A stretch of 64,000 bases of DNA from a virus: the IMG/VR virus record IMGVR_UViG_3300045988_161343; one strand, given 5' to 3'. Below the pieces are notes generated by a model. It searched no databases and had not been told where the DNA came from. It saw only the letters and a program-made list of their open reading frames with translations. Shown one piece after another: positions 6,527-9,023 of this stretch. Numbering within the stretch: the stretch's first letter is position 1; every line of letters starts with the position of its first letter. The translations under genes were made by a program, and so were the position numbers.

Positions 6527-8530
6527 GTGAATAAAATAAATTAGTATAGAGATGGACCTACTAGAGCATTTTGGCCTACAGTTTTTGATGGATTTGAATT
6601 AGAAATTCATTTAGTAGACCATTGCAACCTACAATGCAATAATTGTAATCATTTTTCTCCTTTGGCTTCTCCATTTTTTATTACTTACGAAGATTTTCAA
6701 AATTAGCTAAAATTAGTAAAAAAAACTTTGCCTTCTATTAAAGTTTTAATGCTATTAGGGGGAGAACCATTTTTACATCCTAATTTAATAGAATTATGTT
6801 AGATAGCTAGAAATATTCTCCCAGAGATAGAAATAAAGATATTAACTAATGGTATAATTTTAAATAATTATGATACAAAAAAATTAAAAAAATTAGAAGA
6901 ATTAAATATACATATAAGTATTTCTAAATATCCTAATCAAGACTACAAAGATTTTAGCAATAATAAAAATATCTCATATTTAAATGATAGATTTTTCTTT
7001 GATTAGACATTGGTTGACCCTTTAGGTAAACAAGATAATAAAACTCGTATATATAGTTGTCCAAATAGGATTCCTTGCTTTACATTAAAAGATTTTAAAA
7101 TATATTTTTGTCAGTTTGGGGCACACATAAATAATTTTTGTAATTATTTTTTTAAACAAATTCCATTAATAGAAAATAAAGATTTTATAAAACTAACAGA
7201 AAAAACAAATTTACAAGATTTATAGAATTTAAAATTATGTGAAAAAAATATATGTAAATATTGTCGGCCAGGAGATGTGGTTGATTGGGATCAATCGACT
7301 AAAACTTATGATGAATATACTAAAACAGAAAAAGAATTATTCTTAACAAATTATAATGAATATTATAAAAAATTTGTTGATTTTTCTAATTTTTAGGATT
7401 TTTCAAAAAAGAAATCTTGGAATAACGTTGATTCTTGGTATGCTCCTGATAAAATGAGGACATTTAGAAAGCGCAACGAAGGAAAAATTGATATTATAAT
7501 TCCTTTTTATACAATAAATAAAATATATTTTTAGAAATGTTTAGATTCTGTCTTTAAACAAAGTATTATTAATGATTGTGTAATCTATTTAATTAGTGAT
7601 AATTCTCCAGATAAAAAATATGTATATGAATTTTATAAAACTTATAATAATATATACAATATAATATTATTAGATACTTAGAAAACTAAATCAGGCCCTG
7701 CGTCAGCTAGGACTTTAGGAATTAATAATAGCTTCAATAAGTATTTTTTCTGTTTAGATAGTGATGATTATTTTTATGATAATAAGGCTTTAGAAAATTT
7801 ATATATATATGCTGAAAATAATAATTATGGAATTGTAAATGGATAGACCTATGATAAAAATGAATTTATCCATGACGCTCATAGTTATTTATATAATAGA
7901 GAATTTTTTATAAAAAATAATTTTTCTTATGGCAAATTTATTTATAATGAAGATAGATTTTTATCATTATAGATTTTTGATTTTTATAATGGTGCAATTC
8001 CCTTCTTAGAATAGCCTATTTACGTATATAATAGAAATAATGAAAGTATGGGTAAAGATATTAATTTTTTATATATGACAATAAATGAATTAATTGTTTT
8101 TACTTATTTTTATAGACAATATTTAACAAATAAAAAATATGAAAATAATCATTTTATTTTCGAACATATTTTTAATAAAATTATTGTAAATTTATCTATA
8201 ATAGAAGAAGTAACTGATAAAGACAAAGAATATCTAAAAGATATAAAACAAGAAGAAGCAATTTGTTTAAGTCTTATTTGTTTAATTTTAATTAATGATA
8301 AAATTTTGTTTAATAAGTTATCATTGTTTTATAAAGATTTATTAAATAAAATAAAAAAAGAAGATTTTATTAAATTAAATAATACTGTATTATTTAATTT
8401 AAATAGTCTATTTAATAAAGGAAATCATATACTTGATAATAATAAACTAATTAAACAATTTATTAACAAAGAGTATATTGATTTTATAAAATACGAGGAG
8501 GAAAAATATGGCAATTAGTTCAAACTCTAA
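6527..8530 (+). CDS. radical SAM domain fused to (or immediately followed in-frame by) a GT2 glycosyltransferase; start uncertain (GTG 6527?)
   Basis: One frame free of TAA/TGA across about 2 kb with about 12 TAG. HCNLQCNNCNH (CxxxCxxC) near 6615. Later IIIPFY..ISDNSPD and DSDD, which are GT2 signatures. True stop TAA 8528-8530. Confidence 0.4.
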
Positions 8531-9023
8531 AATAAATTGGAGTGATATTTAGACTATTTTTACTAATTTAAATACCGCAAGAAAAAAATTTTTCCCTAAT
8601 TAGAGTGATTTTCAAGCGACTCCTGGAGGATAGTCAACACAAGCTATGGCTCAATTAGCTCAGAATTTAAATAAGTATATAGAATCTTTTTCCAGTAGCA
8701 GTTATGTTGGTTCAAGAGCAAATATTAGTGAAAATCCTCCTTCGGCAGGAGATTTAATTAGTCCTATTATTTTTAATAGATTTACTACTACAATTAGAAG
8801 CATAAATGATACTTGCGCTCATGATGCGAGTTATAATGCTAGCCATAGAGGTAGTGGATATAATAGTAGTTGGGATAGTTCTGATTATGGAGCAGGATGG
8901 GATACTTCTTATAATTCTTCTCATGATGGTTCAGGTTATCATTCTTCCTATTGGTCAGGGGTTAATCAAACCTGGTGTTCATCTCATGGATGCTCTAGTC
9001 ATTACGGTTCTAGGCACACTTAA
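8508..9023 (+). CDS. hypothetical protein with C-terminal aromatic-X-(S/G)-S repeat tract (candidate substrate/precursor of neighbouring radical SAM enzymes)
   Basis: RBS gaggagg; ATG 8508; 3 in-frame TAG. C-terminal ..SYNASHRGSGYNSSWDSSDYGAGWDTSYNSSHDGSGYHSSYWSGVNQTWCSSHGCSSHYG. Confidence 0.45.

Follow-up and report, generated by a model that had tools for sequence, protein, structure and literature searches.

This article concerns a gene for a small repeat protein, and the enzymes that travel with it, in the DNA of a large gut phage that reads the stop codon TAG as glutamine. The gene lies at 8508-9023 of a 64,000-nucleotide stretch, IMG/VR virus record IMGVR_UViG_3300045988_161343, and it is this whole stretch that we call the window. 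We read the gene product as the substrate protein of a RiPP-like system (RiPP, a ribosomally made peptide with post-translational modifications), its tail being modified by a phage-borne protein-maturation cassette, and we give this reading a probability of about 0.72. To judge from the sequences, the flanking radical S-adenosylmethionine (SAM) enzymes very probably act on this product. Three things lead us there. The gene is tightly linked to those enzymes in one lineage after another, a constant handle is joined to a variable, disordered core, and one of the enzymes (enzyme B below) has the architecture of a SPASM protein. An earlier inspection of the window by a model, the original prediction, had proposed a substrate for cyclophane or other crosslink formation. 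The radical SAM substrate has held up, on linkage in eight of eight lineages and on the pairing of handle with core; the three-residue cyclophane, as the conserved reaction, has not.

A recoded gene

The substrate gene begins at an ATG (8508), with a GAGGAGG ribosome-binding site ahead of it, and ends at a TAA (9021-9023). It overlaps the end of a gene for a radical SAM-GT2 fusion (GT2, glycosyltransferase family 2), at 8530, by 23 nucleotides (nt), and a gap of 20 nt separates it from the ATG (9044) of radical SAM enzyme A. The original prediction had described this layout correctly, both the overlap with the fusion gene and the 20 nt to the next radical SAM gene, and the tail that it quoted reads exactly so in frame 1 of 8508-9023. 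It had the right gene, while saying nothing of the phage origin of the DNA, a pair of U32-like proteins, the size of the protein family or three in-frame TAG codons (8550, 8601 and 8631). Called with translation table 11, the gene yields a 125-residue fragment alone (8646-9023), and the IMG annotation is a 125-residue hypothetical protein. The gene is confirmed as real, and its full product of 171 residues requires TAG to be read as sense.

TAG is a sense codon in the window. We take it as such because recoding raises the plus-strand content of open reading frames (ORFs) from 41 to 59 kb, in a window of 29% GC; because the phage encodes a tRNA with the anticodon CTA; because Gln is the commonest ortholog partner of TAG codons (90 of 498 aligned pairs, from five cassette genes); and because the habit is known among gut phages, where UAG is reassigned to Gln through suppressor tRNAs (PMC10879173). 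All seven substrate genes checked have in-frame TAG, confined to the part encoding the N-terminal domain, on contigs of 20-31% GC. Comparison with a near-identical IMG/VR contig (L007) speaks for the frame itself. There are 10 synonymous codon differences and 1 nonsynonymous one, and third codon positions take 10 of the 11 base changes, a pattern that points to a frame under purifying selection.

The suppressor tRNA is 63% identical to the phage tRNA-Gln, no closer than it is to other tRNAs (57-60%). TAG is spread very unevenly across the window. Tail-fibre-like genes, most cassette genes and several replication genes hold up to 16 each, and there are runs of genes free of it, for example 25181-26317, 28648-30186, 30765-33245 and 46170-51655. 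Standard gene callers would break up much of this phage at its TAG codons.

A constant domain with a variable tail

The protein has two parts. AlphaFold2 predicts a three-helix bundle at residues 11-101, with a predicted local distance difference test (pLDDT) score of 72-87, and a disordered tail (pLDDT about 30). Alignments place the end of the N-terminal domain (N-domain) at a nearly invariant cysteine, C103, followed by an aromatic residue and then Asp or Asn. Homology to an ordinary structural domain was not found: no Pfam, NCBIfam or PHROG model matched the N-domain, and a Foldseek search of the PDB gave no significant match (best E = 1), a three-helix bundle being too generic to inform. 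The window has no second copy of the N-domain.

The tail, 66 residues long, is built of (S/G)-S-Ω-x units, where Ω is aromatic. It has 17 aromatic residues, mostly 4-5 residues apart, 19 serines (29%) and two cysteines near its end. The aromatic-X-(S/G)-S tract that caught the eye in the original prediction exceeds chance: [WYHF]-x-[SG]-S occurs eight times against a mean of 2.0 expected, and 0 of 5000 composition-preserving shuffles reach eight. No tandem repeat was found in the DNA beneath the tail, so its periodicity is kept at the protein level. Close variants tell us what is being kept. Aromatic positions exchange for other aromatics alone (Y109F, H113Y, Y144H, H160F/Y, Y166F and H170Y), and a serine directly before the aromatic is a conserved feature of the unit, present in up to 12 of 14 units.

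By sequence, the N-domain appears to define a large family without prior description or annotation. A database search with the window protein recovered seven homologs of 53-98% identity, in which an N-terminal part of about 105 residues is highly conserved and the C-terminal tract, of variable length, is made of the same units. An exhaustive HMMER search with the N-domain alone brought the family to 110 cluster representatives at 50% identity, and we state its size as a lower bound, at least 110 clusters at that identity; the 90% cluster of the window protein holds 236 sequences. Members come exclusively from Logan, ENA and JGI metagenomes, and the sole name given to any is 'hypothetical protein'. 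Among GenBank phages, a megablast search with the cassette matched a tRNA-Thr alone and a protein tblastn search found nothing, hence no cultured relative. A profile search of IMG/VR with the close alignment returned two near-identical contigs and nothing else.

Nearly all members have the domain first and then a tail of 21-271 residues. Across 133 tails the composition is 20% Ser, 13% Phe, 12.5% Asn, 12% Gly and 5.6% Tyr, with 3.8% aliphatics, 2.2% Lys plus Glu and a modal aromatic spacing of 4. Phe prevails among the aromatics of 96 proteins and Tyr among those of 32; the Tyr/His/Trp tail of the window is a minority flavour. One member, P0014 (373 residues), has a Hint/intein domain (PF14890, 8e-8) straight after its repeat tail, which suggests self-cleavage, or transfer of the C-terminus of a modified tail to another molecule.

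The cassette follows the gene

Parts of the same cassette lie beside the substrate gene in all eight of the divergent lineages sampled, with BLAST confirming the orthology of the components, while the surrounding phage genes vary. The substrate gene often overlaps radical SAM genes or lies within 30 nt of them. A gene kept next to its modifying enzymes across lineages is one hallmark of a RiPP-like system. A conserved recognition part joined to a variable core is another, and it too is seen here, the recognition part being unusually long and folded.

The cassette is complete in L001-L003 and L004-L006, and the full run is present in L015 as far as the contig end; L016 and L017 are short contigs on which part of it is visible. 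More distant are L009/L010 and L011/L012, whose N-domains are about 40% identical, with a YcaO protein added in all four and ThiF in L011/L012. The metagenome-assembled genome GCA_016648615.1 (NCBI) has the cassette without the radical SAM-GT2 fusion. What is common to the lineages is a core of the substrate, radical SAM enzymes A and B, a small protein and two U32-like proteins, A and B. The radical SAM-GT2 fusion usually accompanies them; the GT8-like glycosyltransferase, YcaO/ThiF and a third U32-like paralog are lineage-specific. Tail-fibre-like genes lie upstream in the window and in L001/L004. Elsewhere the flanks hold homing endonucleases, DNA ligase, Mom or gyrase genes, and adjacency to tail-fibre genes is not conserved. 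We also tested the small proteins upstream of the substrate gene as a single cross-lineage family, and rejected the idea.

The YcaO protein of L009-L012, also found with the cassette in L016, has 600 residues, and the ThiF of L011/L012 is a ThiF-like protein. Tails in these distant YcaO lineages hold Cys/Ser motifs such as FTPCDFDNGFSSCYV, which suggests added azoline or thioamide chemistry.

Contigs with the window's own variant cluster at 185-190 kb, and sample names point to the pig and ruminant gut.

Enzymes of the cassette

With TAG read as sense, the genes form a compact block on the plus strand. Coordinates of the cassette genes, and of the tRNA that serves them, are collected in Table 1. 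The CX3CX2C motif is invariant across orthologs in all three radical SAM proteins. In the fusion it falls at C33/C37/C40 (from about 6623), accompanied by six further invariant cysteines and a DSDD motif in the GT2 part; orthologs are 669-680 residues long. Enzyme A has it at C20/24/27, with four further invariant cysteines, and gives weak NCBIfam matches to CbpB, YhhB and PapB. Between 19 and 40 residues precede the motif in enzymes A and B. Besides CX3CX2C, enzyme B carries the complete seven-cysteine pattern of a SPASM protein, including CX2CX5CX3C as C378-x2-C381-x5-C387-x3-C391, and C41/45/48, C313, C331, C378, C381, C387, C391 and C410 are invariant in six orthologs. Its match to the SPASM model TIGR04085 is weak (17.8 bits, cut-off 27), as are its NCBIfam matches to the SPASM domain, nif11, PapB, XyeB and Cxxx-repeat maturases.

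Table 1. Positions of the substrate gene, its two parts, the cassette genes and the suppressor tRNA in the window.
Feature	Coordinates	Strand	Basis or remark
Radical SAM-GT2 fusion, 667 aa (amino acids) if the start is GTG 6527 (inferred)	6527..8530	+	Pfam GT2 5.8e-16; Radical_SAM
Substrate (precursor) gene, 171 aa with TAG = Gln	8508..9023	+	Coding frame supported by codon differences from L007
Conserved N-domain, aa 1-105, predicted three-helix bundle	8508..8822	+	Alignments, HMMER, AlphaFold2
Disordered repeat tail, aa 106-171, presumed modified core	8823..9020	+	Repeat count, AlphaFold2, alignments
Radical SAM enzyme A, 477 aa	9044..10477	+	Pfam Radical_SAM 31.3 bits
Radical SAM/SPASM enzyme B, 456 aa	10477..11847	+	Pfam, NCBIfam, Cys pattern
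Small helical protein, 85 aa	11840..12097	+	Position after enzyme B kept where the region was recovered (85-103 aa)
U32-like paralog A, 282 aa, TTG start	12100..12948	+	Paralogy to B
U32-like Fe-S TIM-barrel paralog B, 310 aa, four invariant Cys	12959..13891	+	
GT8-like glycosyltransferase, 211 aa, DAD motif	13851..14486	+	Pfam Glyco_transf_8 4.4e-5, just below cut-off
Nucleotidyltransferase-like ORF	14489..14884	+	Weak Pfam match
U32-like paralog C, 291 aa	15268..16143	+	Present in the window and L004
Suppressor tRNA, anticodon CTA	19007..19081	+	Needed for translating the substrate gene and most cassette genes

The U32-like proteins bring something different to the mix. The best structural match is a U32 protein, with the U32 TIM-barrel fold, and four cysteines (C161, C192, C196 and C221) are invariant in 61 sequences. 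The U32 proteins studied so far are Fe-S enzymes that hydroxylate aromatic rings without O2, with prephenate as oxygen donor, and two of them, UbiU and UbiV, form a heterodimer encoded by genes side by side (PMC6747719, PMC10990095). In this family four conserved cysteines bind a 4Fe-4S cluster (PMC6747719). The phage proteins resemble UbiU-UbiV, RlhA and TrhP in being paired, side-by-side TIM-barrel paralogs with four conserved cysteines. They differ in having no significant sequence similarity and in the spacing of the cysteines, CX30CX3CX24C against the CX6CX15CX3/4C that recurs in the U32 family. UbiU-UbiV, RlhA and TrhP act on a quinone precursor or on RNA bases, never on a protein.

In a related phage (L011), a few genes downstream of the cassette, there is a gene for a 238-residue DAHP_synth_1 protein (PF00793; 18029-18745). 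DAHP synthase opens the shikimate pathway to prephenate, the U32 oxygen donor. The same family also has KDO8P synthases, and we treat the gene as a lead only.

What the cassette may do

The N-domain would serve as a docking handle for the enzymes, and the tail would take the modifications. The radical SAM enzymes would abstract hydrogen atoms and covalently crosslink aromatic rings to neighbouring residues, the likeliest partner being the conserved serine that adjoins each aromatic and lies three positions past the previous one. The link may be a larger cyclophane or some other bond from an aromatic to serine. The U32-like pair would hydroxylate the tail's aromatic rings without O2, much as UbiU-UbiV does to ubiquinone precursors, and GT2 (joined by GT8 in the window lineage) would glycosylate serines or the hydroxylated aromatics. 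Tail hydroxylation and glycosylation are both probable on this evidence from sequence and neighbourhood.

Every cassette gene other than that for U32-like paralog A (12100-12948) carries TAG. With TAG in the substrate gene and nearly all of its companions, translation needs the phage suppressor tRNA to be active, and this suggests late expression of the cassette. There being no leader peptidase or exporter, the product would be released at lysis or kept as a modified protein. Since tail-fibre-like genes sit just upstream in the window lineage, it could be virion-associated.

One can go further and imagine a new class of phage chemistry. U32-type enzymes would hydroxylate protein aromatics without O2, radical SAM enzymes would couple the resulting phenols or catechols to serines or other aromatics, and the radical SAM-GT2 fusion would then add sugars. 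The outcome would be a tail densely crosslinked into something like an aromatic polymer, resistant to proteases and borne on a small carrier domain; large TAG-recoded gut phages would make it late, to serve as adhesive or armour on the virion surface or as an effector released against competing bacteria. This fuller scheme is speculative, and we would bet against its being right in all its parts. If the hydroxylation step were true, it would give the U32 family its first protein substrate.

Other ways to read the tail

The specific crosslink named in the original prediction was the three-residue cyclophane. Read in this way, the protein would be a precursor of the triceptide type, each Ω-x-(S/G) being closed by the flanking radical SAM/SPASM enzymes through a bond from the ring to the β-carbon of the third residue. 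Triceptides are defined by just such a bond in an Ω1-X2-X3 motif, and their synthases act on Trp, Phe, Tyr and His motifs that are often repeated (PMC11499958). The window tail goes some way towards this, with a β-carbon on the third residue in 12 of 16 units, and the enzymes' weak best NCBIfam matches include YhhB (8.7e-6) and XyeB (0.0026). The third residue, however, is glycine, which has no β-carbon, in the other 4 of 16 units, and, in two close orthologs, in 8 of 13 units of P0004 and 10 of 14 of P0006. Between orthologs it switches from Ser to Gly and back (YDS to YDG), so it is freer to vary than one would expect of a crosslink partner, and family-wide it is Ser in 28%, Gly in 15%, Phe in 11% and Asn in 9%. 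Nor do the enzymes belong with the triceptide maturases: YhhB scores 24.9 and 16.1 bits (cut-off 445) and XyeB 16.5 (cut-off 450), no better than PapB, CbpB or nif11, GrrM/OscB gave no match, and no FxsB-type model was among the matches. A glycine-rich, exchangeable third residue together with failed maturase membership means that the conserved reaction is unlikely to be that of a strict triceptide.

Sugar is the alternative that the glycosyltransferases bring to mind. Radical SAM enzymes that tailor sugars exist. The tail, 29% serine as it is, could then belong to a serine-rich glycoprotein, O-glycosylated on serine by GT2/GT8 in the manner of glycocins or serine-rich-repeat adhesins, with the radical SAM and U32-like enzymes making or tailoring the sugar and leaving the protein alone. 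The fusion joins a GT2 bearing a DSDD motif to a radical SAM domain and is kept in most lineages, and a GT8-like enzyme is present here. We nevertheless think this very improbable. One lineage keeps the substrate, both radical SAM enzymes and the U32-like pair yet has no GT2 fusion, GT8 is confined to the window lineage, the SPASM architecture of enzyme B is typical of peptide maturases, and no genes for nucleotide-sugar synthesis were seen in the cassette. Selection, moreover, acts on the aromatic positions and not on serine alone. Hardest of all to credit is that the tail goes unmodified and acts as a disordered 'sticker-and-spacer' polymer like those of FG-nucleoporins or prion-like proteins, forming a condensate, a gel or an adhesive component of the virion, its linkage to the enzymes being incidental or indirect. 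It looks the part: aromatics set among Ser, Asn and Gly, with almost no aliphatic, Lys or Glu residues, predicted disorder, FGNSS, FSFG or GFGN in many family tails, and tail-fibre-like genes just upstream in the window. Against this, the tail-fibre neighbours are not conserved, and the cassette is linked to the gene in 8/8 lineages, often overlapping it or within 30 nt, despite differing phage surroundings. A physical role for the tail and its modification can coexist.

The RiPP-like reading has its own difficulties, and they weigh against it. The chemistry is read throughout from gene neighbourhood and distant homology; the gene, its recoding, family, synteny, the cofactor motifs and the U32-like fold are established, and the modification steps we infer. 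No protease, exporter (ABC transporter) or PqqD-like RiPP recognition element was found in the cassette with Pfam, NCBIfam or PHROGs, although a leader peptidase, an exporter or such an element is something one looks for in a RiPP system. A 105-residue 'leader' that is folded and highly conserved, and may occupy either end of the protein, is unusual among RiPPs; in five family members the order is indeed reversed, repeats first and domain last. Enzymes A and B score 29 bits or less against every curated maturase model (cut-offs 340-520), and the PDB contains no sequence relative of theirs. One lineage (GCA_016648615.1) lacks the radical SAM-GT2 fusion, and the GT8-like gene has no ortholog in the other loci. 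For the U32-like proteins, hhalign gave probabilities of 0.6% against UbiU and 0.1% against UbiV, neither significant, and the sequence match to PF01136 is not significant either (best Pfam E 0.054; few homologs carry a precomputed PF01136 match), so that the suggested U32 link comes from one fold match and faint Pfam matches. Late expression, finally, is suggested by codon usage alone.

Relatives in logic

One likeness is to triceptides and other cyclophane RiPPs (XyeB, YhhB, GrrM/OscB, HaaB, HtkB and WprB), which share an aromatic-rich, often repeated core beside radical SAM/SPASM enzymes (PMC11499958, PMC11851443), the use of all four aromatic residue types and, through YhhB and XyeB, some of the weak best matches of the cassette enzymes. 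What sets the cassette apart, besides scores far below family cut-offs and a third residue that is often Gly, is a leader that is a folded domain of 105 residues, the addition of U32-like proteins and a radical SAM-GT2 fusion, and a home in a TAG-recoded phage.

The CXXX-repeat target system (TIGR04115) also pairs a period-4 repeat and a non-repeat domain with a dedicated radical SAM/SPASM maturase. Its repeats are of cysteine, whereas those of the cassette are aromatic (with two cysteines in the tail), enzyme B reaches 16.4 bits where the cut-off is 350, and the non-repeat domains are not detectably homologous. We had suspected homology between the N-domain family and the window's own Cxxx-repeat protein from a shared string ('TIITNLN' vs 'TIFTNLN') and rejected it at a hidden Markov model E value of about 0.08 among 118 sequences. 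The window does contain a true TIGR04115 member, a radical SAM/SPASM enzyme at 38268-39566 (+) scoring 391.8 bits (cut-off 350). It is followed at 39569-40429 (+) by a TAG-free gene for a 286-residue protein. C-x-x-x repeats in a long series make up the N-terminal half of this protein. In L004/L005 a similar Cxxx-repeat protein and radical SAM enzyme directly adjoin the aromatic-repeat cassette.

A third parallel is the His-Xaa-Ser system, in which an aromatic-x-Ser repeat protein, HxsA, comes with several radical SAM enzymes (HxsB and HxsC), HxsD completing the set. HxsC is the best radical SAM match of the radical SAM half of the GT2 fusion (4e-5), but at 22.6 bits against a cut-off of 268, and the NCBIfam models for the HxsA repeat protein and HxsB gave no match at E 0.1 or better. 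To our knowledge, the Hxs system is itself uncharacterised.

Glycocin GT2 enzymes (SunS and GccA) are encoded beside a Ser/Cys-rich ribosomal peptide, an arrangement like that of the cassette. The cassette GT2, in contrast, forms one protein with a radical SAM domain, and no resemblance to the precursors of glycocins was apparent. The proposed logic of aromatic hydroxylation followed by a radical SAM crosslink is also that of a biphenomycin-like pathway, which relies on an O2-dependent hydroxylase of the MNIO type (oxidative enzymes dependent on multinuclear non-heme iron), a B12-dependent radical SAM crosslinker and a single FRF motif (PMC12257519). In the cassette the candidate hydroxylase is a U32-like Fe-S pair, of an O2-independent type, and the core is a long repeat.

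By sequence-based tests, then, the cassette appears to belong to none of the cyclophane RiPPs, the CXXX-repeat system or the His-Xaa-Ser system, yet it shares their logic. It stands apart in its new substrate domain, its divergent enzymes, the U32-like pair, the radical SAM-GT2 fusion and the phage setting. In the library that could be searched, we came across no publication that describes such radical SAM RiPPs in phages, nor one that places U32 enzymes in a RiPP pathway.

Around the cassette

Upstream, the interval from a gene for a 107-residue protein to the radical SAM-GT2 gene contains an 11-bp inverted repeat (GCTTGAAAAGC ... GCTTTTCAAGC) and, after it, a run of T (6455-6515, +). It is terminator-like and would set the cassette off, from its start, as a transcription unit of its own; with its loop of 15 nt, it was missed by the scan. 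A promoter scan gave 119 sites against 108.5 expected, which is uninformative at 29% GC. Directly downstream of the cassette lies an array of six tRNAs (Thr, Pro, Gln, Tyr, the CTA suppressor and Gly; 16209-20501, +). Inside the array is a full-length ROOL RNA (RF03087; 320 bits, gathering score 99; 17521-18114, +), and just upstream of the tRNA-Gly is a RAGATH-33 RNA (RF03102; 139 bits; 20020-20132, +). Further along, at 25181-26317 (+), is a TAG-free gene for a 378-residue protein that has a signal peptide-like stretch at its N-terminus and bears S-layer homology (SLH) repeats, which hints at an S-layer-bearing host of the Firmicutes type.

What it would mean

Standard annotation truncates recoded genes, and this is why genome mining missed the family. 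If our reading holds, a large unannotated family joins those known to undergo radical SAM peptide and protein modification, served by enzymes that lie outside every curated maturase family, and the pathway is placed in stop-codon-recoded phages. It would also link U32-like Fe-S proteins to a protein substrate, which suggests a way of hydroxylating aromatic residues anaerobically. With their constant handle, the hypervariable tails resemble a natural library, attractive both for enzyme discovery and as a means of asking how heavily modified proteins benefit large gut phages.

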